DNA of 64,000 bases from a virus (Duplodnaviria > Caudoviricetes), in IMG/VR virus record IMGVR_UViG_3300031993_000006, positions 96,001 to 160,000 of that record; one strand, given 5' to 3'. The notes beneath the pieces are model-generated. The model was not told where the DNA came from. It was given only the letters and a program-made list of their open reading frames with translations, and did not search any database. Positions 1,213-53,927 of the stretch are shown here, one piece after another; positions within the stretch are counted from its first letter, which is position 1; the number at the start of each line of letters is the position of its first letter. The translations under genes and the position numbers were made by a program.

Positions 1213-1312
1213 GTGAACTACGCACCGCCTAGAGGCAATGAGCTTCGCGTTAGTCCCGAATGGATGCCCGCGCCTTTAACCCCGATTTCCCCGAGGCGAG
1301 TACCTTGCGATA
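1213..1312 (-). ncRNA. stand-alone TnpB omegaRNA-like scaffold
   Basis: Similar to the 3' end of tnpB (17813-17905). Upstream on the minus strand is TTGACA-17nt-TAAACT, which overlaps ATAAACT at 1320-1326. Confidence 0.65.
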
Positions 1313-1398
1313 CACTAATAGTTTATAAATTTTTACCCAATGTGTCAAGGGGCTTTCATATCACCGCCTAAAGATGGTGAGTTTTCCGCCTATACTCT
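1213..1398 (-). mobile_element. non-autonomous IS200/IS605-type miniature element (LE hairpin, promoter, omegaRNA-like scaffold, RE), no protein
   Basis: On the minus strand it ends in GTGCGTAGTTCAC, identical to the tnpB element end at 17813. It shares the scaffold CTCGCC..AAGGCGCGGGC..CGCGAAGC. A hairpin at ~1361-1381 resembles the one at 19039-19059, and both lie 17-18 nt from TTTAT. Confidence 0.75.
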
Positions 1399-17812: not shown

Positions 17813-19077
17813 GTGAACTACGCACAGCATGAAGGCTGCGCGCTTCGCGATAGCCCCGTAGGGGCGCCCGCGCCTTGGACCGCCGTTCCGGCGGCGAGAA
17901 TTCTTTTACCTTCGGCAAGAATGTTGATGGCGGCGTTGAAGTCCCTGTCGTGGGAAGTGCCGCATTGCGGGCACTTCCACTCCCGGACATTCAAGTCTTT
18001 AACAACTTCATTCCTGAAGCCGCAGTAGTGGCAGATTTGCGAGGAAGGGAACCATCGTCCGACACAGACGATGGTCCTTCCATACCATTCAGCCTTGTAT
18101 TTCAGCATATTCAGGAATATTCCCCATCCGGTGTCGTGCTCGGACTTGGCAAGGTCGCCTTCGGCGACCTGCCTTACATCCAGGTCTTCGACTGCAATCG
18201 TTTGGTTCTCGCGAATGAGTCGGGTTGATAGCTTGTGGAGGAAATCCTTGCGTTGGCTAGCAATGTGCTCGTGAAGGCGGGCGATGCGCTTGCGCAGCGC
18301 CTCGCGACGGGCAGACTTGCTCTTTTTCTTTGAAAACGCTTTCTGGAGGACCGCTAGGCGGTACTCGGCAAGTTTCATATAGCGCGGGTTGGCGACGGCC
18401 TCGCCGTCGCTCGTCACGCAGAAGTCCTTGAATCCGAGGTCGATACCTATGGCATAATCGGATTTTGGGAGCGCCTTCGGCGCTTCCTCCTCGACCAGTA
18501 TCGAGGCGTAGAACTTTCCGGAACGCGACCGGCTTACGGTCGCGTGCTTGATATCCTTCTCGCTCCAGTCGATATCCTTATAGTTCTTGAACTTGACGAA
18601 GCCGATTTTCGGCAGGCGCAGCCTGCCGTTCTCGATTCGGATATTTTCCTTTGTTCGATAAGTGGTATAGGAATCGCGGTCGTGATGTTTGGCTTTAAAC
18701 TTCGGAAGGCCGACACCATCGGCCTTCCTCTCGAAGAAGTTCTTGAACGCAGCGTTCAGGTTGAGGACTTCGCCCGTTAGGGCGTTGCTATCGACTTCCT
18801 TCAAGAACGGAAACTTGGCATAGTAGTCGGTAGGTTTCGTCCGGCACTGTGTGCCGGTAGCCTCATACGACTTCAAACGGGCGTCCAGCATGCAGTTGTA
18901 CACCTTGCGGCAGCAGCCGAAGGTCTTGCCTAGCAAGACCGCCTGCTGCCGGCTTGGATATAGCCGAATGTTGTATGCCCGTTGAAACATGTCTTAAATA
19001 TATACTATTCTAGCTGTTTATGGGAGTGGTTTTTTATCTAACTGCCTTAAGGCGATGAGAATTCTTGTGGCTATTAT
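17813..19077 (-). mobile_element. IS200/IS605-family element carrying only tnpB (IS1341-like)
   Basis: RE ends GCGTAGTTCAC at 17813; LE hairpin at 19039-19059; preceded on the minus strand by TTTAT (19082-19078); no tnpA. Confidence 0.85.
17818..18990 (-). CDS. tnpB: RNA-guided endonuclease TnpB
   Basis: N-terminal RAYNIRLYP, RuvC residues GIDLG / AVEDL / DRDFNAA intact, zinc finger CHYCG..CPQCG. Confidence 0.95.
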
Positions 19078-19102: not shown

Positions 19103-20833
19103 ATGGCGGGAATAAAAAAGGATGAATATACCATGGATGCGTCAGTAAAAGGGAATATGAGTGAATCTATTTTTGCTCTCGAAGATTCCAAGGACCTCTT
19201 TGAGGCCATCGGCGGCATGAACGATGACCAGAATTTTGGCAACAATGGCGGGCTTCCGCAACCGGACAATACGGAATATGGTGTCGATGACATGCTTACT
19301 GTTATTCCGGGAAGCACGGACCCGTATGCTGGACAGTCTGTTACGGCAAAGCAGGAACCGACCGCTGAACAGAAGCGTTTCGTTCTCGACAAGTTTGCCG
19401 AACAGATGGAAAAGAACCATTTGAACGAAGTCAACAAGGAAGCTATTGATACCTTGTCGCCTATCGTTCAGGATATGGCAGGCTCTTCTATCAATGTGAA
19501 CCAGTTCCTCAATGATTTGCAGGACCAGGCTTTCCAGCGCATTAGCGCACAGAATGTTTCTGAAGCTCAGCCGGGTGGCGCTGTTCCGGAAGACGACGGT
19601 TTGGCCGGTCAGGGCGATGTTGGCGCACAGCAGCCGGGTGCAATGGCTCCGGTGACTGACCCGACGGCTCTCGGTCCGGGCGCTCAGGAAGCTCCGGGTG
19701 GCATTCCGACGGAACCGTCCCTCGATGCCAATGTCGGTGACCCGAATGCTATGGGCGGGCCAGATGGTCTCGGTCTTGATGGCATTACGGATAATACTGA
19801 CCCTGCCGGTCTTGACAGCTTTGGCGCTGAACCGGGTGCTCCGGCAGGTGGTGACCTCGGTCTTGATGGCATTACGGATAATACTGACACTGCCGGTCTT
19901 GACGGCATTGGTGGTCAACCGGGCGCTCCGGCAGGTGGTGACCTCGGTCTTGATGGCATTACGGATAATACTGACACTGCCGGTCTTGACAGCATCGGTG
20001 GTGAACCGGGTGCCCCGGCAGGTGGAGACCTCGGTCTTGGAGGCCCCGGTGGTGGAAGCGCTCCTGCCGAAGGCGGCGATGTCGGTTCAGTTGAAGGTGG
20101 TGCAAGCGGCAAGGATGATGACATCCTCGGCGGCTCTAACCTCGACAAGATGAGTGATGACTCTTTTGGCGGCGATAGCGCAGATAAGAAGAGCGAAGAC
20201 AAGGGTCCGAGTACTTCCGAAGATGACGACGATGACGCCGCGTTCGAAGCTGAAATGGCTCAGAAGATGCCGATTCTTGAATCTCTCCGTGAAAAGTACA
20301 TGGACGATGTTGCTCAGGAACGCGCAAGCGCTGCTCTCTGTGAGTTCGTCCAGCGTCGGCAGATGGAGAAGAAGGCTAAGCTTGAAGCACAGTCAAAGGC
20401 TTTTGCTGCTGAACAGGTCAAGTTTGAAGCTGCTGCTGCTACGATGCGTAACGAACTTGGCAGCAAGGTTGGGAGTCTCATTGCTGAAGAGTCCAACAAG
20501 CGCGCCGAATCCATTTTGGAAAATGCTTCCCGTGCTTACGCAAATGCACAGAAGCGCAAGGCTGATGCCATGATGGTTCATCCGAAGCCGGTTCAGGTGG
20601 AAAGCGCAGCTATTCCTGATTCATTGAAGGCCCAGCTCGAATCCATCTCTAAGGATTACCACGCTACGGTCGCTCGCGAAAACAGCGCAAAGGCCGAAGC
20701 CGCCCGCGCAGCTGCTCCGGCTCCGAAGCTCGAATCTCAGCAGGTCGCCCCGAAGGCTGCTCCGAAAGCAATGACGGGCAAGCCGAAGACGATGCTTGAA
20801 TCCCAGCTCGCTGGAATCTTGGCCAGGCACTAA
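19103..20833 (+). CDS. acidic low-complexity protein, probable prohead core / internal head protein
   Basis: Late promoter; many (L/F)E(S/A) motifs; G/D/P-rich middle, helical C-terminus. Confidence 0.55.
   Translation: MAGIKKDEYTMDASVKGNMSESIFALEDSKDLFEAIGGMNDDQNFGNNGGLPQPDNTEYGVDDMLTVIPGSTDPYAGQSVTAKQEPTAEQKRFVLDKFAEQMEKNHLNEVNKEAIDTLSPIVQDMAGSSINVNQFLNDLQDQAFQRISAQNVSEAQPGGAVPEDDGLAGQGDVGAQQPGAMAPVTDPTALGPGAQEAPGGIPTEPSLDANVGDPNAMGGPDGLGLDGITDNTDPAGLDSFGAEPGAPAGGDLGLDGITDNTDTAGLDGIGGQPGAPAGGDLGLDGITDNTDTAGLDSIGGEPGAPAGGDLGLGGPGGGSAPAEGGDVGSVEGGASGKDDDILGGSNLDKMSDDSFGGDSADKKSEDKGPSTSEDDDDDAAFEAEMAQKMPILESLREKYMDDVAQERASAALCEFVQRRQMEKKAKLEAQSKAFAAEQVKFEAAAATMRNELGSKVGSLIAEESNKRAESILENASRAYANAQKRKADAMMVHPKPVQVESAAIPDSLKAQLESISKDYHATVARENSAKAEAARAAAPAPKLESQQVAPKAAPKAMTGKPKTMLESQLAGILARH
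19769..20038 (+). repeat. in-frame 87-bp (29-aa) tandem repeat, three copies plus a partial
   Basis: CTCGGTCTTG starts at 19769, 19856, 19943 and 20030; unit approximately LGLDGITDNTDTAGLDSIGGEPGAPAGGD. Confidence 0.95.
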
Positions 20834-27582: not shown

Positions 27583-27615
27583 CAAGGTGCAGAGAAATCT
27601 GCACCTTGTTTTTTA
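27583..27615 (+). terminator. intrinsic terminator after gp23
   Basis: AAGGTGCAGA-gaaa-TCTGCACCTT plus T tract. Confidence 0.88.
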
Positions 27616-27781
27616 TTTATGACCGCTGACCTGCTATCTTTGTGAATATTATACCACAATATACTAATATATTCTGGCCTGCTATTTTGGTAAGGATGTC
27701 TATATAATTGAAAAATATTTATTTTTCTATTGACTTTTTGATTTACACATACTATATTTGTAAAAAAAAGGAAGTTAAATT

Positions 27782-29389
27782 ATGAAATGTTTAATATGTG
27801 AATCTAACGGAAAAAACGTTGAATACGAAAAAACAAGTTCATTGGGTACCCATTTGTGGAAAACGCATAATATGAAACCGAAAGAATATTATGATAAGTA
27901 TCTTGCAGGTCCAAATGACGGAAAATGCGCTGAATGCGGGAAACCTACATTGTTTAGAACTATTGGGCAGGGATATTTGGAATTTTGTTCTAAACGTTGT
28001 TCCGCCAAGCATATTGCATCTGATTCTGATAGAAATGCACACAAAATTGCTGCATACAATAATACAATGCGGGAACAATATAATGTAGATAATTGCGCTC
28101 AATTGGTAGAAGTAAAGGAAAAACGGAAGAATACCATGCTTGAGCGTTACGATGTCGAATATTATTCGCAGACGACTGAATTCGTTGATAAGTATCACCG
28201 AACTAACATGGAGCGAAGGGGGGTGCCGAGTGTACTGTCGTTGCCCGAGGTTCGTGCAAAACTGCGTGAAGCTAACATGAAAACTCTTGGGGTTCCTTAT
28301 CGGTTTTGCACTAGCAAGGCAGCCGCAATTAAGGTATATACTGAATTTCTTGGAAATAAAAACTGTGATTTGGTTGAGTTCAAGGATAAGAAACACATCG
28401 TTTATCGTTGCCGTAAGTGTGGGTTTGTAAATACTGAACAGGATTTGTTCCTTAAGGTGAGGGATGGCGCAAACGTCCCTATATGTACCAGATGTTTCCC
28501 GAAAAGTTCACCTGTTTCTGGCGAAGAATCTGAGGTGAGTCGATTTATTGAGTCACTCGGGTTTAACGTACAGCACTATGACCGGGATTTTTTGGACAAG
28601 TATGGTGCTGATATGGTTATCGAAGATAGAAAATTGATTATTGAATTTGACGGTATTCGCTGGCATAATGAGATGTATAGGCCTGATGATTATCATGTCA
28701 CCAAAAGTGATATTGCTGAACGGATGGGCTATCGGATGATTCATTTATTTTCCGATGAATGGGAGGAAAAACGTTCTATTGTGGAAAGCCGATTAAGGTA
28801 TGCACTAGGCATTGCGGGTTTGCCGGTTAATGCGCGTAAATGCACTGTTAGTGTAATCACAGCGGATGAAGCCAAACGGTTCAATGAAGCGTATCACATA
28901 CAGGGTGATGCAGTTTCGTCGGTTCGCTACGGATTATATAAGGATGGCGAATTGGTTGCTGTTATGACTTTTGGCAAGGCTAGGTTTATGCTGGATTCAT
29001 GGGAGCTAATTCGTTATTGTGTGAAGCCTGGATATTCTGTTAGGGGAGGAGCCGGTAGGTTGTTCAGACATTTCATTGACGATGTTCACCCGACTGCCGT
29101 CGTGACGTATGCCGACCGAAGGTGGTCTAATGGACATGGCTTCTATGAAAAGATTGGATTTAAATATGACGGTATTACGGCTCCCGGGTATACCTATGTG
29201 GTGGGGAACCATCGGGAAAGCCGAATGACATATCAGCGTCATAAGATGGTTGGCGATGATGTTGTCGAGGGGAAGAGCGAACATGAAATCATGTATGGTA
29301 GGGGAATATATCGAATATACGATTGTGGAAACTATAGATATTACTGGATGAATGGAAACAACAATATCTTAAATAATAAGGAAATGTAA
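27782..29389 (+). CDS. Hef-like putative homing endonuclease (zinc fingers, Vsr/DUF559-like nuclease, GNAT/Mom-like C-terminal domain)
   Basis: CxxC..HxxxxH, ERYxV repeats, GADMVI..IEFDGIRWH, ELIRYC..TYADRRWS..YEKIGF. Confidence 0.75.
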   Translation: MKCLICESNGKNVEYEKTSSLGTHLWKTHNMKPKEYYDKYLAGPNDGKCAECGKPTLFRTIGQGYLEFCSKRCSAKHIASDSDRNAHKIAAYNNTMREQYNVDNCAQLVEVKEKRKNTMLERYDVEYYSQTTEFVDKYHRTNMERRGVPSVLSLPEVRAKLREANMKTLGVPYRFCTSKAAAIKVYTEFLGNKNCDLVEFKDKKHIVYRCRKCGFVNTEQDLFLKVRDGANVPICTRCFPKSSPVSGEESEVSRFIESLGFNVQHYDRDFLDKYGADMVIEDRKLIIEFDGIRWHNEMYRPDDYHVTKSDIAERMGYRMIHLFSDEWEEKRSIVESRLRYALGIAGLPVNARKCTVSVITADEAKRFNEAYHIQGDAVSSVRYGLYKDGELVAVMTFGKARFMLDSWELIRYCVKPGYSVRGGAGRLFRHFIDDVHPTAVVTYADRRWSNGHGFYEKIGFKYDGITAPGYTYVVGNHRESRMTYQRHKMVGDDVVEGKSEHEIMYGRGIYRIYDCGNYRYYWMNGNNNILNNKEM

Positions 29390-29390
29390 A

Positions 29391-31619
29391 ATGCTTAAAA
29401 AGACCCCCGAGAACACCTATCTATGCTCCAAGTGTCCGTTTCCGAACCCGTTTGCAACTGTGCGCCTCCTGGGCATGCACATCGCGTTCACCCACAAGAT
29501 GCCTACGAAGGAATACTACGACGAGTTTCTCAGGGAACCCGGCGAGGGGACTTGCCGCGTGTGCGGCAAGCCCACCAAGTTCAGGTCGTTGGGCGAAGGG
29601 TACAAGGAGACATGTTCCCACAAGTGCGGTTCCGAGTTGATGAAGAGCGACCCGTCCAAGATGGCAGCCAAGAAGGCTAAGACCGAGGCTACCTGCATGG
29701 CCAGGTACGGCGTGTCGAACGGGGGCGCTTCCGCGGCGGCGCTGGAGAAGGCGCAGAAGACCAACATGGAGCGACGCGGGGTCGCCTGGAATATGCAGTC
29801 CCGCGAAGTCGTGGAAAAGTCCAAGAATACCTGCAAGGAAAAGTACGGCACGACCACCTATGTCCACAGTTCGGAAGGTGCCGCCCGTGTGGAGAGCAAG
29901 GTTATGGAGCGGTACGGACGCTCGAATTTCTTTTCCGGTAAGGAAGGGTATGATGCAGCCTCGCGCGGGATGATGGAGAAGCACGGGGTGGACAACGTGA
30001 TGCACGACCCGGCTGTACTCGATAAGAAGCTGGCCGACGACCGGGCGAAGCACGGCGGCAAGCTGTTCGTGGAGACCGAGGAGTTCAAGAGGAAATCCAG
30101 GGACACTCAGTTTGCCGAATACGGCACTTGGTATAGCGCTTCCGAGGAGGGGCGTGCCCGCTACCGTGAAAGCATGATGGGGAAGCACGGGGTTCCCGAG
30201 TATTTCCAGAGTGATGAATTCAAGGGGAAGTCCATGGCAACCATGCTTGACACCCGCGGGGTGGAGAACATTTCGCAGACACAGGAATGGCGGGACAAGG
30301 TCGCCTGGACTTCGATGGAAAAATATGGGGTCGCCCACTTTATGCAGTCGCCGGAAGTCAAGGCGAAGGCGGTTGCCACCAATCTCGAACGGTACGGGGT
30401 GAGTAATTTTGCGCAGACCCTTGCCTGGTATGGGAAGTTTACCGAGACATCGATGGCAAATTGGGGAGTGCCCCATCCTGCACAGAGTAAGGAAGTACAG
30501 GAAAAGAAGGATGCCACCAATCTAGAACGGTATGGCGCACTTAGCTACATGCAGAGTGATGAATACCGTAACCGTATGATGGAAAAGTATTTTAAGATGT
30601 TGGACCTGTACGGCTGTGAACTTGTCGGGCGTCCGTCGAGCGAATCGGTCACTTACCGTTGCTCGAAGTGCGGGCAGGAAATGACCGAACAGATTCAGCT
30701 GGTGAAGGACAGGATTGCGCATGAGGTCACCCCGTGTACATGCTGCCACCCGAAGGATGCCATCGTATCTCTCGAGGAAAGTGAACTGTGCAAGTTTGTC
30801 GAATCCCTTGGTGTCAAGGTTGACCATTACGACCGGGATTTCCTCGGGAAATACGGTGCGGACATCGTAGTGGAGTCTGTAAAGGTGATTATCGAGTACG
30901 ACGGGGTGTACTGGCATTCGGAGCTGTACAAGGACAGCGGGTACCACCTGGAAAAGAAGTTGCTTGCCGAGGACAAGGGTTACCGCCTCGTCCACATCTT
31001 TTCGGACGAGTGGGTGTACAGCAGGAAGATTGTGGAGGCAAGGCTGCGCTACCTGTTCGGGTGTCCTGGGATGGAGAAGGTGTACGCCCGTGACTGCGAG
31101 GTGAAGGAAATCGCCCCCGCGGTCTACCGCGATTTCCTTGACGGCAATCACATACAGGGTTCGGTGAACTCCAGGTGGGCGTACGGGTTGTACCATGGGG
31201 AGCGCCTGGTGTCGGTGATGACTTTCGGCATGGGCAGGTTCGATTCCGGGAAGGTGGAACTGCTTAGGTTCTGTTCGGAGAACGGCGTGTCTGTCCCGGG
31301 TGCGGCAGGGAAGCTGTTCAGACATTTCGTGGACGGGCATCCCGAGGTCGGCGAGATACTGACCTATGCCGACATGAGGTGGAGCGTTGGTGACGCGTTC
31401 TATACGAAGCTCGGGTTTACTTTGGATTCCATGAGTGCCCCCGGGTACTACATAGTGGACGGCGACCGTCGTTACAACCGTATGAACTACCAGCGCCACA
31501 AGATTGCCGGGCCTGGCGACGAGGGGAAGACCGAGCATGACATTACATTGGAGAGAGGGCTGTACCGTATTTATGACTGTGGGCAGTACAAGTATGTGTG
31601 GAAGAGGGGGCTGGTATGA
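29391..31619 (+). CDS. second Hef-like putative homing endonuclease, paralog with expanded (E/K)(R/K)YG repeats
   Basis: Same architecture as 27782-29389: GADIVV..IEYDGVYWH, ELLRFC..TYADMRWS, RIYDCG. Confidence 0.75.
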   Translation: MLKKTPENTYLCSKCPFPNPFATVRLLGMHIAFTHKMPTKEYYDEFLREPGEGTCRVCGKPTKFRSLGEGYKETCSHKCGSELMKSDPSKMAAKKAKTEATCMARYGVSNGGASAAALEKAQKTNMERRGVAWNMQSREVVEKSKNTCKEKYGTTTYVHSSEGAARVESKVMERYGRSNFFSGKEGYDAASRGMMEKHGVDNVMHDPAVLDKKLADDRAKHGGKLFVETEEFKRKSRDTQFAEYGTWYSASEEGRARYRESMMGKHGVPEYFQSDEFKGKSMATMLDTRGVENISQTQEWRDKVAWTSMEKYGVAHFMQSPEVKAKAVATNLERYGVSNFAQTLAWYGKFTETSMANWGVPHPAQSKEVQEKKDATNLERYGALSYMQSDEYRNRMMEKYFKMLDLYGCELVGRPSSESVTYRCSKCGQEMTEQIQLVKDRIAHEVTPCTCCHPKDAIVSLEESELCKFVESLGVKVDHYDRDFLGKYGADIVVESVKVIIEYDGVYWHSELYKDSGYHLEKKLLAEDKGYRLVHIFSDEWVYSRKIVEARLRYLFGCPGMEKVYARDCEVKEIAPAVYRDFLDGNHIQGSVNSRWAYGLYHGERLVSVMTFGMGRFDSGKVELLRFCSENGVSVPGAAGKLFRHFVDGHPEVGEILTYADMRWSVGDAFYTKLGFTLDSMSAPGYYIVDGDRRYNRMNYQRHKIAGPGDEGKTEHDITLERGLYRIYDCGQYKYVWKRGLV

Positions 31620-32671
31620 CGGAGAAGAACGGAAAGGAAGAAATCGTCATCGATTCTAGCGTGGCCGGGATGGGATGCGGCGAGCCGAATTTCATTGCTT
31701 GTTATAAGAAGGTGGCCGCCAAGGTGGGCGAGGAAGCGGCTATTGGGTTGTACTCGGGGATGACTCCGGGAAAATCCGCGTTCATCCTGGCGTCCGATAC
31801 GAAGCTGGACAATTTCAGTGTGAGGTGGACGTTGCCGAGGCTGATTGAGATTGTCGATAACGGGTACCGGACCAGGAACCAGGTTCTGCATTGCCAGCAA
31901 CATGATAAGCCGGATACCGGTTATTGGTATGACGACTATGACCGCGACGAGTTCTTCGGCACTACCGATACGGTCACATATGCGAGGTGGCTATATAACC
32001 GGTTCGGTGCGGGGAAGGTTGCCAAGGTGTTCGGGGTGTCGGTGGAGTTTGCTGAGTGCCTGGGGAACAGTTCGATACCCGGGCGTACCCCGGTGGCGTC
32101 GTTGGACGGCGATATCGGAAAGGTGAAGGAACTCGAGGAAGCTGCAGAACTGAGACACGAGGCTGCCTATCGGAATGCCGAGAACCTCCGGGAGTTCCGC
32201 GACGGCGGTTCTAGGAAGCTCAAGGTTAGGATGAACCGGCTACTGGAGGTGCCCGGCATGTTTGTCCTCAAGAGGCTGATAGAGGCGGAAGAGTTCAACA
32301 TCGCGGCGAAGAACTGTGCATGGAAATATGTCGACTACAACTACGACAAGAAGCGCGAGAAGTTGTTGGAGGCTATAGGGAAACTGCCTGAAGCCGGATG
32401 GAAACGCTGGTGGCAGAAGGATGCGGGCGGACATGCAGCCTATATCTTCTATGTCGAGCTTCCCGGAGGTGTCCAGGTGAGCTGGCACGGTATGGATGTC
32501 GGGGACATGAGGGATGTCCCGGAGGACCCTGATGGGAAGTGGGACGGACGCTTGGCGTCGACGTTGCCGAAGCTTGTAGACTGTGTGCTGCGGATGTGCC
32601 CGTCGATAACGGATACGAAGTTCGACCGTGCAAGGTGCCTTGTGGAAATCAAGGCGAACATGAATAGCTAG
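31616..32671 (+). CDS. hypothetical protein
   Basis: ATGA overlap with the upstream gene; long ORF; no family recognised. Confidence 0.7.
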   Translation: MTEKNGKEEIVIDSSVAGMGCGEPNFIACYKKVAAKVGEEAAIGLYSGMTPGKSAFILASDTKLDNFSVRWTLPRLIEIVDNGYRTRNQVLHCQQHDKPDTGYWYDDYDRDEFFGTTDTVTYARWLYNRFGAGKVAKVFGVSVEFAECLGNSSIPGRTPVASLDGDIGKVKELEEAAELRHEAAYRNAENLREFRDGGSRKLKVRMNRLLEVPGMFVLKRLIEAEEFNIAAKNCAWKYVDYNYDKKREKLLEAIGKLPEAGWKRWWQKDAGGHAAYIFYVELPGGVQVSWHGMDVGDMRDVPEDPDGKWDGRLASTLPKLVDCVLRMCPSITDTKFDRARCLVEIKANMNS

Positions 32672-32719
32672 AAGGCGGACCCTTTCCTGCTTTGTGAACT
32701 ACGCGGGCTGGCCGGGATA

Positions 32720-32753
32720 GCCCCGGGAATTCTCGACGGATTCCCGGGGTTTC
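32720..32753 (+). terminator. hairpin / terminator
   Basis: CCCCGGGAAT..ATTCCCGGGG followed by TTT. Confidence 0.65.
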
Positions 32754-32825
32754 TCGTATTTGGTATAGTTTACAAAATGCGACGATATATAAACTATGGG
32801 GTATGTTTAACCGGGGATAACTGAT

Positions 32826-33023
32826 ATGCTCGAGAACAAGGCATCGATTGACTCCAAGACAATAAAGGCTCTGATGAGTGGCGTTATTAATGGTAACACT
32901 GCCGAAGTGTCCCGTATTGTCGGGGCATGTGTCGAGTCTGAGTATCGTAAGCGGATAGACAAGGCCACCAAGGCTGTATTCGAGTCTATAGCCGCGAATG
33001 TCAAACCGGTCATTTTAGGATAA
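32826..33023 (+). CDS. small putative prohead core protein
   Basis: Late promoter 32789-32795; directly before gp21, as T4 67/68 are; VES/FES motifs. Confidence 0.55.
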   Translation: MLENKASIDSKTIKALMSGVINGNTAEVSRIVGACVESEYRKRIDKATKAVFESIAANVKPVILG

Positions 33024-33033
33024 GGGGTGTCTG

Positions 33034-33747
33034 ATGATTCTGGTTGAAGACATAAATCCTGGCGTAGCCCAGTCTAAGATTCGCTACGAGGACCGTATTG
33101 GTCTTGATGGCAAGCCGGTTAAGAGGCTTATTATTGAAGGCTATGCGTTGGTCTGCGATATCTCCGGTATTAACGGGCGTGAGTATCCGAGGGATATTAT
33201 CGCGCGAGAAGTTGAACGGTTGAACCGTGAAGCTGTTCCTTATGGCCGTCTGGCTGCGGAACTTAACCATCCCCGCCTTGACCCGGACGGAAACTCCAGG
33301 GATTACCCGATATGCGAGCTTGACTTGTCTAAGATGTGCGCAGTCGTCGAGGAGCTCCGCATGGAAGGGAACAAGGTGTACTGCCGGATGGTGGTTGCCG
33401 AGGATATGGATGCCGGGCACAACCTTGCGGGCGCTTTGAAGGCCGGGTATCATCCGGGGTATTCAATCCGTGGTGCTGGCGATACCATCCCGAAGGGGGA
33501 CCACGAGGTTATTACCGACAATTACACCCTTATCACTATTGATGTTGTCGGCAATCCTTCCTTTGGAAAGTCGGCTATTGTAAATTCACGATATGAAAGC
33601 CAGGCAATGCCCAAGAATATGAAGGCGCTTACCGAGTCCGCCAACAATCTCAGACGGGAGGTGGCGGTCAACCATAGGCTCCGTGACTTGGGCTATCGGC
33701 AGTTCGAGGTTTCTGGTTTCATGCAGTTTGCTTACTCTCAGGTGTAA
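33034..33747 (+). CDS. gp21: prohead protease, T4 gp21-like
   Basis: INGREYP, AELNHP, GYSIRGAG, TIDVVGNPS catalytic motifs. Confidence 0.93.
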   Translation: MILVEDINPGVAQSKIRYEDRIGLDGKPVKRLIIEGYALVCDISGINGREYPRDIIAREVERLNREAVPYGRLAAELNHPRLDPDGNSRDYPICELDLSKMCAVVEELRMEGNKVYCRMVVAEDMDAGHNLAGALKAGYHPGYSIRGAGDTIPKGDHEVITDNYTLITIDVVGNPSFGKSAIVNSRYESQAMPKNMKALTESANNLRREVAVNHRLRDLGYRQFEVSGFMQFAYSQV

Positions 33748-33749
33748 AG

Positions 33750-34655
33750 ATGGAACTCAATAAGATATTGACAGAAGAAGAACTTAAGGGATTAAATCCC
33801 GATGCGGTGGCAAAGTTGGAATCCGCACATAAGGCTGAACTGGAGCAGGTGGCCAAGAATGCTGATGCCAAGAGTGCGGCCAAGTTTGAGTCGCTTGCAA
33901 ATGCGCTTGGGCAGAAGTTCAATGAACTGGTCAACAAGGCGGTCACCGAGAGTGTCGGCAAGATGCAGAACGATGCTATCAAGAGTAGGATGGCGGTAGC
34001 GCTTACTCAGATGGCTGGAATCCTTGAGAGTATCGGCATCCCGGCGACCGAGGAAACCAAGCGTCTTAAGAAGGAACTCGAGCTCAGTACTGAGAAGATG
34101 CAGAATGCCTATGCCGAGGTCGAGAGCATCAAGAAGCAGTTGAATCAGCAGGCGAAGATTACCCGCATCTATGAGTTGACCAAGGGTTGCGACAGCGATA
34201 CGGTCAACCGATGCATCGAGCGCTTCAAGAAGGAAGACCTCCGCGCTATTGACAAGGTTGCGATTGCCAACTTCATGGACAATATGGATACCGGCGACGG
34301 AAATACCTATTCAGTCGATGTGGATATTACCAAGGTTCGCCCGGGTGAACGCCCGAATTCCGCTATCATGGATAAGGTCGAGCTTGCCCTTAGCGACATC
34401 AAGGATGATGCCGATATGGATATGCCGGGGTTCCTCGCCGAGGATAATCCGGATGTTAAGCAGCCTGTTCGCCGTAGGAATATGCTTGGTGAGGCCAGTA
34501 GGCGTCCGTTCAAGCCGGAACGGGTTATGTTCCCGGCTACCGGAAGCGCGATGATGGAAGCTCAGCAGAATAACTCCCCGATGGACGAGGATGTGCGCCG
34601 CGCGATGGAAGCCGGTGCAGCCTTCGAGGGTCTCGGGTTTGGGAGATTTGGCTAA
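33750..34655 (+). CDS. prohead core/scaffold protein, gp22-like
   Basis: Helical protein right after gp21 with many xES motifs. Confidence 0.7.
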   Translation: MELNKILTEEELKGLNPDAVAKLESAHKAELEQVAKNADAKSAAKFESLANALGQKFNELVNKAVTESVGKMQNDAIKSRMAVALTQMAGILESIGIPATEETKRLKKELELSTEKMQNAYAEVESIKKQLNQQAKITRIYELTKGCDSDTVNRCIERFKKEDLRAIDKVAIANFMDNMDTGDGNTYSVDVDITKVRPGERPNSAIMDKVELALSDIKDDADMDMPGFLAEDNPDVKQPVRRRNMLGEASRRPFKPERVMFPATGSAMMEAQQNNSPMDEDVRRAMEAGAAFEGLGFGRFG

Positions 34656-34685
34656 CCGGGAATTTCGTCTCCTTGGTTCCCGGTG

Positions 34686-34716
34686 CGGCGGGGCAGTGAT
34701 GCCCCGCCGTTTTTTA
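34686..34716. terminator. intrinsic terminator after the gp22-like gene
   Basis: CGGCGGGGCA-gtga-TGCCCCGCCG plus T tract. Confidence 0.85.
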
Positions 34717-34734
34717 ATCTAGTTTAAGGCGTAG

Positions 34735-34825
34735 ATGACCTGCTGTATAATGTCAGCTTCGCGTTAATCCTAGTGGGACGCTCGCGCCTTTAACCCCCGT
34801 GTCGAGAGGCGAGTACATTACTGTA
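34735..34825 (-). ncRNA. second stand-alone omegaRNA-like scaffold with an altered 3' end
   Basis: The minus strand reads GTACTCGCCTC..GGGGTTAAAGGCGCG..TAACGCGAAGCT, shared with 1213-1312; GCTATATTA promoter-like motif at ~34832-34840. Confidence 0.6.
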
Positions 34826-34917
34826 CATATATAATATAGCATCATTCGAATTGACGGTCAACGGTATGAATTAGTTTAATATATGCAAGATAAACTGTGA
34901 AAGACGGAGACTCCCGC

Positions 34918-35841
34918 ATGAATCAGATGGATTTTAACTCAAGACCACAGAACTTTAGCCGGCGTATGCCCGGCACGATGGCAATGCCTAATCAGCAGGC
35001 ACAGCCTCAACCGGGTGGCATTTATGTCAGGCCGCTCAATAACGGTGGCGCTCGCCCGATGGGTGGTGGCAATTTTGCTCCCCGTCCCGGCATAAACCCC
35101 GGGATGAATCCGGGTATGAATCCGGGTATGGGTCCTGGGCAGGGTGGATATGCCAATGGGATGAATGGTTCCTATAATCCCGGAATGAACGGTGGCTACA
35201 ATAATGGGATGGCTCAGGTGCAAGGCGGCTATGGCCGTAGGCGCAATTTCCGCACCGAAAATATTAATGCCGGTGAAACTATTGTTGGCATGGACCGGAT
35301 GACTCCTAATGGCGAACGCTGGGACCAGGTTCGTCTAGGCGATGTTCGCGATAATCTCTCCAAGGAAGAAGCCGATGCTCGTCTTGACCAGCTCGACGAC
35401 TTTATGGAACAGATGAAGGGTACGGTTGACCTCGGTGTTGCTTCTCCGGGGAACGTGGACCAGATTCAGTCATCCATCAGGCTTCTCGTCCAGCTTTTGC
35501 TTGACCCGAATTGCTGGCTCCCGACCGATGTTATCCAGAATCATCGTGACATCATTACGAAGAAAGGTGCCATCGTCGCAAAGAATTTGTGGCAATTTGG
35601 CAATGCTATTGCGATTGCTACTAGGACTAACCAGTTGCCTCCTATCGAGGAATTAATGCCGCAGGCTCGTGACCAGCGTCGTGCCGCTGCACAACAGCAG
35701 GGTGCCGGTTCTCAACAGCAACAGGTGCAACAGCAGGTACAGCAGCAGGTCCAGCCGCAGTATCAGCAGCAACAGCAGTATCAGCAGCAACAGTATCAGC
35801 AGCAGCAGTATCAGCAGCAACAGCAGGCATATCGCCGATAG
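34918..35841 (+). CDS. protein with N/G/M/P/Y-rich N-terminus and polyQ C-terminus (prion-like composition)
   Basis: NPGM repeats and QQQQY repeats flank a ~125-aa complex core; late promoter 34890-34896. Confidence 0.75.
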   Translation: MNQMDFNSRPQNFSRRMPGTMAMPNQQAQPQPGGIYVRPLNNGGARPMGGGNFAPRPGINPGMNPGMNPGMGPGQGGYANGMNGSYNPGMNGGYNNGMAQVQGGYGRRRNFRTENINAGETIVGMDRMTPNGERWDQVRLGDVRDNLSKEEADARLDQLDDFMEQMKGTVDLGVASPGNVDQIQSSIRLLVQLLLDPNCWLPTDVIQNHRDIITKKGAIVAKNLWQFGNAIAIATRTNQLPPIEELMPQARDQRRAAAQQQGAGSQQQQVQQQVQQQVQPQYQQQQQYQQQQYQQQQYQQQQQAYRR

Positions 35842-35850
35842 AAAGTTATT

Positions 35851-38800
35851 ATGAATACGATTAGCCTTATACATCGCAAGTACAAGGAGAGTACTGAGAT
35901 AAAGGCCGCTTGGGATTCCGGGCGGGCTTATTGGGTTGAGTGGCTTTCGACGGATTCCGAGAGGAAACCGGCGTACCACTTATGTCCTCCTGTGTACGGG
36001 TGGTACACCGAAGCGTTGAAGGTCGGTAAGATACCGGAACTCGACAATGCGGTGTATTTGGCTACTCTGACTTTCGGCCCGGAATTTCCGTATGCTATTG
36101 AGCATATATGGGCTATCCCGGAACATAGGGATGTTGTCGATACGAGCGATTATGTCAATGGTGAATTGCCGGAATTTGTCGGCAATTTGTTCTTCGTGAA
36201 TGACGGCAAAAACTGGGAATTGTACACAACTTCAAATGTTGTTCCTGATGTGGTGTGGTTCTTGGTCGATTACAAGACGGCTGAGGGAACTACGAATCGG
36301 TTTGAATACTCGATGCCCATTGCGTTTCCTACGGAATCGCGCGAGGCAGGATTCTCGTTGAAAGGTTCGACTTACCATTTTAAGAATAACACGGCTGAAG
36401 ACTGCATCTTTATCGGTGAGTTGGTTTATGATAGCGCAGTTGGCGAAATCCTAGAAGTAAACTATGATGCCGATTGCGAAGAAGGCGTTGAATGTCCGTT
36501 CTATGTTGTTCAGGACGGTAACCGGTTTTCGCTTTGGACTCGCTATACCGTAAGCGATAAGCCGCATGTAGCCTTTGATGTTCCTTTGTACATAAAGTAT
36601 GTCGATGTCGTTACTGGTGATGTTAAGGAAATTGTCAAGCACTTTACGATACACGGCATAAGCATCGATATGGTCGCCGAACCGTTTGTGAAGTATGTAA
36701 GGAATCTTGCGAGCAAGATAGATTCCACTGTACAGGTCGATATACTTGGTGGAAACTTCACCGATGATATGTCGGTACGGATTGCGTTTTCAGATGAATG
36801 GGTGGATGTTATACCGTCGAGCGAAATTTTGTTCAGCAATGAAGGTACCTGGGACAAGATGAGCTTCATTATGGACGGTAACCACGCTTATAAGGTGAAT
36901 GGCGAGGAAGTATGCGCCGTATATGACCTTCAGGTCGGATATGGCGATGCACAGGGATTTGATGGTCGTGGCGGCACGGGCGATGCCAAGATGGCGCTCG
37001 AGAATAACATCGGGCTGATTCGCTATAAGTTTGACGAATCGAATGAGGAAGCTAAGAAGATTGCATCGGCCGGTACGCTCGTGACTACGGATAAGCCGTG
37101 CTTCTATAGTTCGGAAATTTCGATGGTCTATGATGCGACTGATTCTGATGGCAATATGCAGCTCAATGGAGGTGCGGCCGGAAAGTACGGGAAGACAATC
37201 TACTGGAAAGTCAATCCGAAGGTCGATTGCGAAAAGGTAAGGTTTGTAAAGGTCAAGCTTAAGTACAACAAGCGCCTTGATTATCGCCACGGCGAGATGG
37301 TTCTTGACGGAATATATCTCAGCGACGGCGATATAGTGTGGCTCGATGGCCAGCTTGACGGAACGGGTGGCCTTTGGGTCGTGCGCGCGGGGGCTGACTG
37401 GGAAGGCTTGGCGGACTATATCAACTATCCTGACGAAGCGGCTGAATTTAGCGACCCGTGTACAAGTCCGAAGCGCACCCCGCTGGCTGTGGATGATAAT
37501 GTCTTTGTCGACCTTGGTGCCCGGGTGGGTGATTCGGTCAGTTACAGGTGCGCACAGGACGTGCCGAATAAGTATGGGATGCAGTATGTCTGCGGTCATA
37601 CAACTGAACCGGGTGACCTATTGCTCCTTACTAACCAGTCCGACGGAATGAACGGGGTGTGGGAAGTTACTTGCGTCGAATGGATTTACCGTGGCGAAGT
37701 CAATGATGACGGAAGTACTGGGTTTGATGCGAGCGATGCTATTCTTTATCAGAACAACATTGATTTCTGTGCTTGCCGTGACGCGGTTCCAAATCCGATT
37801 TTCAATATCGAGTATTACTACCTGAATGCAGGTTGCTACTTGGCGAAAGCTACTCGTAAGGTGAAGATGATTTGCGCCCGTGCGGGTGCCATCGTGCCTA
37901 ATGCGAAGGTCGTGATAACTGACTACTCGATTACCGCCGGCGCAAATGATGAACTCGTTGTGGATACCCATCGGACGGCTGGGGATGGCGAGGTTGAAGA
38001 TTGCGTAAAGCCGAATGATAATTTTGAAAAGACCAGCGGCGTTGAGACAACCGTGGTTGAACGCGGTTGCGGTGTGGATGGGACATACCTTGTAGCTCCG
38101 GACTGTAACGAGATTTGCGATTGCCCGCGTTATTATACTCTCCCGAATAATTTCAGTAATTCGTCGGTGAACTCCGGGTTTACTATCGTGTTCTGGCAGT
38201 TTGGTGAAGGTGGCTGGCACTTGTATGCGTATATCTGCCGCAAGGCGTCGGGCTCCGGCGTGGAATACCTTGTGTACCATTTGCGGATATGCGGCATTGC
38301 TACTGAGCGTATGGTCGACGAGAATACCGAGGTGTTCGTTGTTGAGGAAGATGGTTCCAGTTACCGCACGAAGGATGCTTGGTTTGTCGAGCACGGGGGC
38401 GTATTGGCTGATGGGTTCTCCATGTACGACCCGGCCTGGGTATTCGTGGTTCCTGTTTTGGGTGAAGACGGTAATCCTGTCGTTGACGAATCTGGTGAAC
38501 CGGTTACCGAGGAAACTCATTATCTCGATGCTCGCACTCTGTATCAGGTATGGGCGTTGCATGGAACGGATACTTTGCACGGAGTGGAGGGGACGAAGAT
38601 TCTTGCTCACAGGGGAATGGTGGGTACTTCCGAGGTTCCCGTTGGGATGCCCCATGTGTATGGCTTCAAGTTCTTCAATGTGCCGATAACCAAGGAGCGC
38701 TTCTGCAAGCTGTATAACGAGGGGCAGGGCGGTTGCATCTGTCAGGATACTTGGAGTGGCTTGGCTACTGACCAGTGCTATGATTCTGAAGGTGAAGTCA

Positions 38801-38922
38801 TTGACTGCGACCAGATGGCATCGGTCGGACCGGCGTTCATTACTACGGATGATGGCGAGATTTTCTTGGCTGAGCGCAACTGCTATGACGAGAGCGGACA
38901 CAAGGTCGAGTGCGAAGAATAG
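35851..38922 (+). CDS. putative virion structural protein (acidic, Cys-rich, beta-rich)
   Basis: Two copies of a GD(I/L)xxLxxQxDGxxGxWxV motif, like those in phage fibre and baseplate proteins. Confidence 0.55.
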   Translation: MNTISLIHRKYKESTEIKAAWDSGRAYWVEWLSTDSERKPAYHLCPPVYGWYTEALKVGKIPELDNAVYLATLTFGPEFPYAIEHIWAIPEHRDVVDTSDYVNGELPEFVGNLFFVNDGKNWELYTTSNVVPDVVWFLVDYKTAEGTTNRFEYSMPIAFPTESREAGFSLKGSTYHFKNNTAEDCIFIGELVYDSAVGEILEVNYDADCEEGVECPFYVVQDGNRFSLWTRYTVSDKPHVAFDVPLYIKYVDVVTGDVKEIVKHFTIHGISIDMVAEPFVKYVRNLASKIDSTVQVDILGGNFTDDMSVRIAFSDEWVDVIPSSEILFSNEGTWDKMSFIMDGNHAYKVNGEEVCAVYDLQVGYGDAQGFDGRGGTGDAKMALENNIGLIRYKFDESNEEAKKIASAGTLVTTDKPCFYSSEISMVYDATDSDGNMQLNGGAAGKYGKTIYWKVNPKVDCEKVRFVKVKLKYNKRLDYRHGEMVLDGIYLSDGDIVWLDGQLDGTGGLWVVRAGADWEGLADYINYPDEAAEFSDPCTSPKRTPLAVDDNVFVDLGARVGDSVSYRCAQDVPNKYGMQYVCGHTTEPGDLLLLTNQSDGMNGVWEVTCVEWIYRGEVNDDGSTGFDASDAILYQNNIDFCACRDAVPNPIFNIEYYYLNAGCYLAKATRKVKMICARAGAIVPNAKVVITDYSITAGANDELVVDTHRTAGDGEVEDCVKPNDNFEKTSGVETTVVERGCGVDGTYLVAPDCNEICDCPRYYTLPNNFSNSSVNSGFTIVFWQFGEGGWHLYAYICRKASGSGVEYLVYHLRICGIATERMVDENTEVFVVEEDGSSYRTKDAWFVEHGGVLADGFSMYDPAWVFVVPVLGEDGNPVVDESGEPVTEETHYLDARTLYQVWALHGTDTLHGVEGTKILAHRGMVGTSEVPVGMPHVYGFKFFNVPITKERFCKLYNEGQGGCICQDTWSGLATDQCYDSEGEVIDCDQMASVGPAFITTDDGEIFLAERNCYDESGHKVECEE

Positions 38923-38945
38923 ATTTTCAATGAGGAAAGAAACTT

Positions 38946-39749
38946 ATGGCTTCTCAAGATTCAATAGGAATTCAGAAGAAAATTATCGACCTTGACCCGT
39001 ACAAGGCATCGGTTGTGGAAACTGTCGCTGAAGACAGTGAAACGGGTAAAACCGTTGTGGTCGGGCAGGAAACCGTATTCGAACCGGATGAAAATCCGAA
39101 CGAGAATGCTGCGTGGGTCCCGGCTACGGTAAAGCAGGGCGGTAATACAAGGTACACGGTTCGCCTTCCTCTCCCTGTTGCCGGCGATGGCCTCTCTCAG
39201 GATTCCGACGGTAACCTCAAGGTCGATGTCGACCCGAACACGATGGAGATTCTTCCTGACGGCAAGCTCGCGGCAAAGACTGCAGTTCCGGCTGGCATAG
39301 TGTTCTCCAGTACGATTGACCCGCTGACTGAAAGTTTCCAGCCATTTGATATGACTACCGTGTCGGCTAAGGACAATGTATTGAACAAGGATGATGCGGC
39401 AAAGTTTGCATCTGGGCTTGCACCTGCTGAGGGCGAAGTCGAATTTCCGGGTTCTTGTACCTGGATTAAGGTTGATACCCTGATGCATTTCACTGTCGAA
39501 CAATACGAGCGCAGCATCTGGTCGTACCGGTGCATTTACCGGGTGGAAGTTTCTGACCGTGCCGAGCCGATTGATGTTGAATTTTCGCTGGATACGACGG
39601 AGCCTGATAGTACCATTTCAATCCCGGTTTCAATCAAGAACAACGGGAATTCTCCTATTCGTGTGAAGGCTAGCCTCAAGTGGGACAAGGCTGGTGAGGG
39701 TGAATTGGGAGTCGCGTGTATCGCCAAGATATCTATGACCGCCGTCTAG
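38946..39749 (+). CDS. hypothetical, probably structural protein
   Basis: In a late operon; beta-rich C-terminus. Confidence 0.6.
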   Translation: MASQDSIGIQKKIIDLDPYKASVVETVAEDSETGKTVVVGQETVFEPDENPNENAAWVPATVKQGGNTRYTVRLPLPVAGDGLSQDSDGNLKVDVDPNTMEILPDGKLAAKTAVPAGIVFSSTIDPLTESFQPFDMTTVSAKDNVLNKDDAAKFASGLAPAEGEVEFPGSCTWIKVDTLMHFTVEQYERSIWSYRCIYRVEVSDRAEPIDVEFSLDTTEPDSTISIPVSIKNNGNSPIRVKASLKWDKAGEGELGVACIAKISMTAV

Positions 39750-39797
39750 TCAACGAAAGAACTAGTTTACGGTAAAAGTAGATATAGGTGGTATCGC

Positions 39798-40697
39798 ATG
39801 GCATCAAGTGCAAAGGAAAAGAAATACCGTCGTCCTCGTCAGAAGAAAGTTCCGGCTATGGCCGCCGAGTTCGACGAGAACGGTCACCAGACCGTCCAGT
39901 CGATGATGTATGGACGCATCGACCCGAATTACCTTACCCGTTTGATTATGGAATATAAGGCGTATATGGACCCGTTCGTTGCCGAGCGGGAAGCCATTGC
40001 CGCCATTGACAAGGAAAAGGCTGCGAAGATGGTCCCGCCGGAAATGGGCTGGCATCTTGGGCGCTGCGTGGATATTATCATCAAGAAGACCCTCGGTCTT
40101 CCCCGTTGGCGCGACTATAGCTCCGGGTGGCACGAGGAAATGTACGCACACGCATTGCTGTTGGTTCTTCGTTATCTCCACCGGTTCGACCCGGCGAAGG
40201 TGACTTCCGACCCGTTCTTCTATGCCGGTATGATTGTGTGGAATGCATGTAACCAGGTGTGGAATGTCCTTGACCGGCAGAATCGCCGAATCAAGTTCAT
40301 CCCGTTGGTCGACGGCATCTATCATTCTGTCGTAGCTATGGACCAGTATGCCGGTGTTCTCGAGAAGGAAGAGAAGAAGCGGGCTGAACGCGCCAAGGCT
40401 GAAGTGGTCAACTCCGGTAGCATAACTATCGACAGCGCCGTTGACATCATCAAGGAAATCGACGAGGCTGCAGGTATTCATATCGAGGAAGACTGGCTTG
40501 CTCAGCTCAATATCAACCGCGCGATGAAGAAGATTGTCAACGGTAAGGTGATAACATTGAAGCCGTTGCCTGCTCTGGAAGCCGCATATTTGGCTAATAA
40601 GGTGGAAGAGGAAAAAGCAGCAGCCGCTCCTGAAGCCAATACGGAAGAACTTGCACCCGAAAAGGAAGAACCCGAGGTTAAAACCGAAACTGCATAA
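39798..40697 (+). CDS. gp55: late-transcription sigma factor, T4 gp55-like
   Basis: LGRCVDII, WRDYSSGWHEEM, RFDPAK..DPFFYAGMIVWNA match gp55 conserved blocks. Confidence 0.82.
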   Translation: MASSAKEKKYRRPRQKKVPAMAAEFDENGHQTVQSMMYGRIDPNYLTRLIMEYKAYMDPFVAEREAIAAIDKEKAAKMVPPEMGWHLGRCVDIIIKKTLGLPRWRDYSSGWHEEMYAHALLLVLRYLHRFDPAKVTSDPFFYAGMIVWNACNQVWNVLDRQNRRIKFIPLVDGIYHSVVAMDQYAGVLEKEEKKRAERAKAEVVNSGSITIDSAVDIIKEIDEAAGIHIEEDWLAQLNINRAMKKIVNGKVITLKPLPALEAAYLANKVEEEKAAAAPEANTEELAPEKEEPEVKTETA

Positions 40698-48894: not shown

Positions 48895-48959
48895 AAAACA
48901 AATATAGCAAAGAAATGCAGCCGGTTGGCTGCCTTTGCTGATTGTTGCGATTAGAATAT

Positions 48960-49376: not shown

Positions 49377-49655
49377 AGAAAGTTTCCTGTGGTTAGTTTT
49401 GCTATAACACAAATATAGCAAAATTACCATCGGTCGTAGCAGGGATGTTTCTCCACGGGAGTGATTGCAAGCTTGTCGAGTTCATTGAGGTTGTTGTACC
49501 AGTTTTCCTGATACTGTTTCATCGGGTTACTAACAGCTAACCTAAAATCTACCTAAGCTTACTCAAATATAGCAAAATCTACGAGAAATATGTGTATTTT
49601 TAGGTTGCAAATCGGCATAAAATTTTGTATATTGTTATAAACTTGATGTATAGAG

Positions 49656-53909: not shown

Positions 53910-53927
53910 ACGACAAATATAGCAAAA

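Follow-up and report, generated by a model that had tools for sequence, protein, structure and literature searches.

A 155-bp insertion in the genome of a rumen phage (copy B; 34735-34889, minus strand) consists of a left end, a promoter-like site, an omegaRNA scaffold and a right end, and contains no protein gene. Its junctions, that is, the TAM TTTAT, the left end, the right end and the guide that follows, are those of an IS200/IS605-type element that targets its own vacant site. Judging from sequence comparisons, we consider it fairly probable that copy B is a PATE-like guide cassette without tnpB, which would make use of TnpB in trans for homing or retention. It represents an omegaRNA-only cassette that is phage-resident, promoter-bearing and hairpin-less, and for which a vacant site is documented.

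The stretch of DNA analysed (the window, 64,000 nucleotides) represents bases 96001-160000 of a 259,974-bp IMG/VR virus record (G000) with 50% G+C and an estimated completeness of 91%. The record has genes for a major capsid protein of the Gp23 type and for a prohead protease of the T4 type, and numerous studies of bovine, goat and sheep gut metagenomes have recovered DNA near-identical to that of the phage. The phage is a T4-like jumbo phage of the rumen with a genome of ~260 kb. A megablast search of window positions 30000-40000 against INPHARED gave zero matches, and ARAGORN found no tRNA or tmRNA. A 5.1-kb stretch of the window (27613-32745), flanked by the Gp23 capsid gene on one side and the prohead-protease cluster on the other, is missing in the sibling contigs L014 and L022-L025, in which it is replaced by 39 nt. 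Two of its three ORFs have DUF7487 together with weak, below-cutoff matches to endonuclease domains of the Vsr, MTES_1575 or DUF559 type, and the stretch may be a free-standing homing-endonuclease island. Two repeat tracts were also recorded: three tandem 87-nt repeats within a 576-aa ORF (19769-20044), and, in the next gene downstream of copy B, a CAG/CAA (Gln-rich) repeat run at its 3′ end (35713-35827).

Insertion site and vacant alleles

The 301-aa protein encoded in the flank of copy B has a 96%-identical relative on the IMG/VR contig L014, where the intergenic sequence reads ...ggcgtag|ataaactgtg...; the same sequence is present in L022, L023 and L024, which come from other samples. These four siblings (96-97% nucleotide identity) carry the exact empty site, and relative to them copy B is an insertion of 155 bp. 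Because the empty site is precise, copy B can be identified as a discrete insertion with junctions of the IS200/IS605 type, and the claim of an earlier sequence-only reading that this RNA lacks transposon ends does not hold. The boundary is ambiguous by 2 nt (AT), 34737-34891 being equally possible. The RNA strand of copy B is the minus strand, on which the TAM (34890-34894) lies directly 5′ of the left end and at the empty-site junction. On the plus strand, the promoter motif of the gene downstream, ATAAACT (34890-34896), begins with the TAM. This gene, which starts at 34918, keeps the motif intact, copy B being located at the upstream edge of the motif.

Read on the minus strand, the filled allele runs from the flank end CACAGTTTAT through the left end, which begins with CTTGCATAT, the promoter-like site and the scaffold, which extends to CAGCAGGTCAT, into the flank CTACGCCTTAAACTAGATTA. 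In the empty allele, CACAGTTTAT is directly followed by CTACGCCTTAAACTAGATTA, the vacant junction being ...CACAGTTTAT|CTACGCC.... That is, copy B was inserted immediately 3′ of TTTAT, with no target-site duplication, and the empty site is scarless. The predicted guide, CTACGCCTTAAACTAGATTA (20 nt; 34715-34734, minus strand), is flanking DNA and corresponds exactly to what comes after TTTAT in the empty alleles, with identity at 20 of 20 positions in L014, L022, L023 and L024. Both TAM and target are unmutated in these alleles. The guide matches the vacant allele perfectly after TTTAT, and it has no other match in the genome, allowing up to 4 mismatches in 20 nt. A guide that matches only the vacant allele represents a selfish homing or retention configuration, and by its sequence copy B looks like such an element and not like a regulator that serves its host.

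The vacant-site junctions agree with where the guide and the GGTCAT end had been placed from the sequence alone, as does the recognition of CTACGCCTTAAACTAGATTA as a 20-nt spacer between the element end and the terminator hairpin of the upstream gene (33750-34655). This intrinsic terminator (34685-34715, plus strand) lies just past the guide. Seen from the minus strand, it forms a hairpin but lacks a U-run, and no U-run terminator follows the guide, a point against interpreting copy B as a homing cassette.

The filled allele was found in four contigs with the window's protein allele (one of them 262,728 bp in length; gene spacing 262 nt), and in contigs from runs of two other studies, X2 (bovine) and X5 (goat). 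The empty allele was found in 10 sibling contigs, with a gene spacing of 107 nt. No joint (empty-form) contigs were detected in the four runs examined. The left flank of the insertion is free of mismatches over at least 91 nt, the right flank over at least 198 nt. These SNP-free tracts (about 90-200 nt) were considered as a signature of co-conversion and rejected as such, being no longer than local SNP spacing predicts.

The omegaRNA scaffold and its promoter-like site

A repeat search revealed three copies of the scaffold core in the window, the copy at 34755-34797 being 81% identical to 1241-1283 and 77% identical to 17841-17883. A covariance model built from 11 relatives, from which copy B was deliberately excluded, matched copy B with 64.7 bits (E 8.7e-18) across all 102 model positions (34829-34735, minus strand); the match to the core scaffold that had been claimed from the letters is thus confirmed. 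The model match ends at 34735, which is the insertion boundary. Since the scaffold ends at the right boundary of the element, a minus-strand transcript would run into the flank and thereby add a guide of ~16-20 nt.

The scaffold of copy B (34735-34829, minus strand), as defined by the model match, its folds and covariation, consists of a 5′ hairpin (GUAC..GUAC), stem 2 (CGCCUC..GGGGGU), a nested stem 3 (CGCG[GUCC..GGAU]CGCG) and the right-end hairpin GCUG..CAGC, followed by the tail AGGUCAU. The right-end hairpin, which has 10 bp in the family, is reduced to 4 bp in copy B, and the tail, which aligns with AGUUCAC of the family, differs from the tnpB-linked scaffolds at two of seven positions. 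The model aligns the right end of copy B with that of the family, which indicates a shortened homologue rather than a foreign replacement. The sequence GCTG-acattata-CAGC-AGGTCAT is therefore present as originally described, whereas the description of the right end as replaced must be corrected.

In an alignment of 13 sequences and four helices, 95.6% of the cells are paired, against 23-40% when the 3′ partners are slid by 1 to 3 columns, and nine pairs have changes on both sides, so that stem covariation is kept across the relatives. The single-sequence folding energy of copy B is not better than that of shuffled sequences (z −0.6 to −0.8), and the structural support accordingly comes from covariation. 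With six copies of the scaffold in the 260-kb genome and eight in metagenomes, the match is not due to chance. The tnpB-less scaffolds of the genome, A, B and C, are all on the minus strand. No Rfam family reached its gathering score in the window, and nothing was found at E values up to 1 on the tnpB 3′ end; the two weak Rfam matches near copy B, both on the neighbouring terminator hairpin, were dismissed as chance ones. Scaffold patterns searched in IMG/VR gave no matches.

The left part of copy B (34829-34889, minus strand) contains the promoter-like site. No inverted repeat of 8 nt or more is present in 34700-34920, meaning that copy B has no left-end hairpin, as had been noticed at the outset. 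A search of the genome and the other DNA compared gave no homologue of these 61 nt, and the unmatched left part leaves the first arrival of copy B at this site unexplained, which also counts against the homing-cassette reading. A minus-strand consensus scan identified TTGACC-17-TATATT, with the -35 box at 34861-34856, the -10 box at 34838-34833 and 10 of 12 consensus matches. TG precedes the -10 box, and the first scaffold hairpin starts 6 nt past it. The GCTATATTA motif reported upstream of the scaffold in the sequence-only reading is present and is the -10 part of this site. Promoter-like architectures at the same distance to the scaffold as in copy B, but of divergent sequence, are found in A (TTGACA-17-TAAACT), C (TTGACA-18-TAAACT) and the metagenome copies L016, L018 and L021 (TTGCCA-17-TATATT). 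In run X2, the -35 box of copy B reads TTGACA, which is the consensus. Otherwise, the element in X2 differs at three positions, all within the promoter spacer; X5 shares one of these and differs further only in the first hairpin loop. The strain differences are few, yet they are distributed as would be expected if promoter boxes and paired scaffold positions were under constraint. The assembled contigs of metatranscriptome runs X19 and X20 cover the flanking genes only and have no bearing on small RNA.

The motif at the insertion site, ATAAACT, occurs 56 times, ~2x the expected number, and for 51 of the 56 an ORF of at least 60 aa begins no more than 80 nt downstream. A second abundant phage motif, TTTGCTATATTTG, which GCTATATTA of copy B resembles, is present in ~30 exact copies genome-wide versus about 1-2 expected (e.g. 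window positions 48899-48911, 49410-49422, 53914-53926 (reverse complement)) and is a second phage promoter class. Since TTTGCTATATTTG is similar to the -7 box TAnnTTTG of Bacteroidota, the host may belong to this phylum, e.g. to Prevotella.

One could argue that copy B is an inert relic, that is, a decaying IS200/IS605 remnant that is neither transcribed nor used, whose polymorphism reflects ancestry and ordinary phage recombination. Copy B is the sole member of its subtype, its left part is unique and devoid of a left-end hairpin, and its right-end hairpin is shortened. Moreover, decay in place does occur: contig L028 (1690-1760) carries a ~57-nt remnant of A with an internal deletion, in which the right-end hairpin is fused to the outer left end. 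However, this true case of decay has lost the scaffold core and the promoter, both of which copy B retains. The promoter-like site and all four stems of copy B are intact, and pairing has been kept by compensatory changes. Strain differences avoid the paired scaffold positions, one of them bringing the -35 box to the consensus, and the TAM and target of the empty alleles have remained unmutated. Taken with these observations, we regard an inert relic as unlikely.

Sister elements and the supply of TnpB

The tnpB element T3 (17813-19077, minus strand) is made up of a tnpB gene (17818-18990, 390 aa) and an omegaRNA scaffold (17813-17914) that overlaps the 3′ end of the gene. Its TnpB contains the Pfam domains OrfB_IS605, TNB and HTH, matches the ISDra2 TnpB over residues 4-369 (E 1.5e-83) and keeps the RuvC triad (D184, E268, D350) and the zinc-finger motifs, two CxxC. 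In L034 (a relative at 99% aa identity), T3 is missing and the vacant site is directly upstream of ATAAACT; an exact-protein look-up for the gene upstream of T3 returned no record. The left ends of T3 and T1 abut ...AGTTTAT, giving the same TAM as for copy B, and AGTTTAT likewise precedes the metagenome copies L016, L018 and L021. The genome contains at least two complete T-family tnpB copies, plus one that is cut by the contig end, and tnpB-linked scaffolds are located at 40 kb, 113.8 kb (T3) and 162.6 kb of G000. Having no tnpB of its own, copy B must rely on the TnpB of the genome, for which T3 is the likely source in trans. The earlier suggestion of a guide for a TnpB encoded elsewhere thus stands, but not its variant of a TnpB-derived regulator, since the catalytic triad of the copy checked is intact and the protein is not TldR-like.

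Several further tnpB genes and scaffolds were noted. At 162614-163784 of G000 (C1), the full scaffold is kept but tnpB falls into two frames, covering residues 1-227 and 215-390; with just 74% identity to T3 in the N-terminal part and a different left end, this copy is probably recombinant and broken. A divergent tnpB with 33% identity to T3 and the right end ...GGGTAGTTGAC lies at 94679-95887 (C1), shortly before the window begins. It is located between a DEAD-box helicase gene and a NIF3 gene, which are ~20 nt apart in L026-L033, indicating that this element is polymorphic as well. A tnpB-linked scaffold in L018 (13384-13484, minus strand) has the GGUUAAAGG signature otherwise found only in tnpB-less cassettes and a longer insert in place of stem 3; it may represent the parent subfamily of these cassettes.

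Mini-element A (1213-1398, minus strand) is likewise tnpB-less but has kept the T-type left-end hairpin and the GTTCAC right end. It is missing in seven of the eight fetched contigs with an identical dUTPase (L026, L027, L029-L033), the empty site being ...TTTTTGATATG|ATAAACTAG.... A, B and T3 are all located at the upstream edge of ATAAACT, and all have empty sites in relatives. The third tnpB-less cassette, C, lies outside the window (G000:C1:251262-251431; locus L002 about 1425-1595, minus strand). It has a full scaffold with the right end GCGTAATTCAC and an 18-nt guide, and then a well-formed terminator hairpin with a U-run. As in B, the left-end hairpin has been lost in C, whereas A retains a T-type one.

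It could also be that copy B is a PATE mobilised by TnpA, moving by peel-and-paste with the help of a Y1 transposase from the host or from a co-infecting element, in which case the empty alleles would be excision products or never-occupied sites. The junction is exactly of the TnpA type, 3′ of the TAM and without target duplication, and the TAM is common to sister elements at other sites. Against this, no Y1 transposase was found in the 260-kb genome by a PF01797 search, which detected one in 10 of 14 control genomes. Copy B lacks a left-end hairpin and its right-end hairpin has just 4 bp, and B-type ends occur at one site only. Furthermore, the scaffold core pattern is absent from 185,579 prokaryote species (one genome each), and the closest cellular TnpB is 43% identical, except for two ~3-kb contigs binned in rumen MAGs (75%). 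Such mobilisation consequently seems quite improbable. The absence of the scaffold core from these prokaryotes and the distance of cellular TnpB proteins also make the family look phage-resident.

The sequence-only reading had proposed a domesticated guide, i.e. an RNA that, for regulatory or defensive purposes, directs TnpB, or a nuclease-dead derivative of it, to a target in the phage or its host. The presence of an own promoter-like site, the lack of a left-end hairpin and the several divergent tnpB-like genes in the same genome are all compatible with this. But the only match of the guide is the vacant site of the element itself, and copy B is not fixed among close relatives, being present in some phage lineages and absent from others, including the 10 sibling contigs. 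In addition, the T-family TnpB that was checked has an intact catalytic triad, and searches for a partner gene with a GGTCAT end, in the genome and in IMG/VR, gave none. A fuzzy search of the genome for other GGTCAT right ends gave chance matches in coding DNA only, and the GGTCAT-end pattern had 9 chance matches in IMG/VR, in GC-rich coding regions and none with a scaffold, so that neither search revealed a tnpB homolog with this end. Domestication of the guide thus appears very improbable.

Proposed cycle and relation to known systems

If copy B is a guide cassette that homes or is retained with the help of TnpB in trans, it would be transcribed from its own promoter-like site to give an RNA of about 110 nt, which would be loaded in trans by a T-family TnpB from the phage's own tnpB elements. 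T-family TnpB would have to accept the shortened scaffold, and the 4-bp hairpin and the tail differences at two of seven positions count against this. The complex would then recognise and cut TTTAT plus target, which is present only in genomes without the cassette, i.e. a co-infecting sibling genome or a copy that has lost the element. Repair of the break by recombination from the filled genome would copy the cassette in or restore it. With the left-end hairpin missing and the right-end hairpin reduced to 4 bp, copy B is probably not a TnpA substrate any more and would persist through homing and recombination alone. The initial idea of an immobile guide RNA may thus be correct insofar as copy B is probably immobile as a transposon and without TnpA-type hairpins, but not in that it was kept for a service to the phage, as the guide points to self-propagation.

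The TAM of ISDra2 TnpB is TTGAT. The TAM inferred for the phage elements is TTTAT, again a 5-nt T-rich sequence 5′ of the target. The system resembles ISDra2 TnpB with its reRNA/omegaRNA (PDB 8EXA, 8BF8, 8H1J) also in that the scaffold overlaps the tnpB 3′ end and ends at the right end, but it differs in that there is no tnpA, and copy B in addition has no tnpB and a shortened last hairpin. PATEs that encode omegaRNAs and need TnpB in trans have been described in Geobacillus stearothermophilus by Meers et al. (10.1101/2023.03.14.532601). Like these PATE-like elements, copy B has no protein gene, its omegaRNA scaffold abuts the right end, its guide is flanking DNA and its TnpB would come from another element. 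In contrast to PATEs, copy B resides in a phage genome and has a promoter-like site of its own at the 5′ end of a minimal scaffold, and its TAM is part of a phage promoter motif. It also lacks the left-end palindrome that defines PATEs; that is, hairpins at both ends, the TnpA substrates of IS200/IS605 elements and PATEs, are not found in copy B.

TnpA-independent, TnpB-dependent spread of IS605 between plasmids has been reported, and the concept of non-restorative homing between co-infecting phages has been put forward (PMC13565253). Copy B resembles the free-standing homing endonuclease genes of T-even phages, Seg and Mob (PMC13565253), in that it is situated between conserved structural genes and is present or absent among close relatives, and it is predicted to share with them the cutting, during co-infection, of the allele without the element, which is then copied in by repair. 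Unlike Seg and Mob, the target of copy B would be specified by an RNA guide plus TAM, with the nuclease predicted to be encoded elsewhere, and self and non-self are set by the insertion itself rather than by nearby substitutions. TldR proteins, whose RuvC site is inactivated, have adjacent guide RNAs that target host gene promoters (PMC10705468). In both cases a TnpB-family guide RNA exists outside a mobile tnpB gene, although the TnpB checked here is intact and the vacant insertion site is the sole target of copy B's guide.

Homing guided by TnpB is documented for bacteria and plasmids, whereas for phages it has so far been no more than a proposal. A natural phage population that contains both the filled and the exact vacant allele, the latter with a TAM and a perfect guide match, therefore constitutes a directly testable case. 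The questions that can be addressed are whether guide RNAs alone may act as selfish viral homing elements and what the minimum working omegaRNA scaffold with its own promoter is. The location of these elements is of interest too, as they adjoin a phage promoter motif at its upstream edge and leave it intact. In a bolder version of the proposal, which we put forward tentatively and would not yet back over its opposite, copy B might be a guide-only, nuclease-free hyperparasite that borrows the TnpB of the phage's autonomous elements and, its TnpA-type ends having been lost, spreads and persists purely by RNA-guided cleavage of vacant alleles. If true, it would be a natural 'split gene drive' in a virus, acting during co-infection in rumen phage populations.
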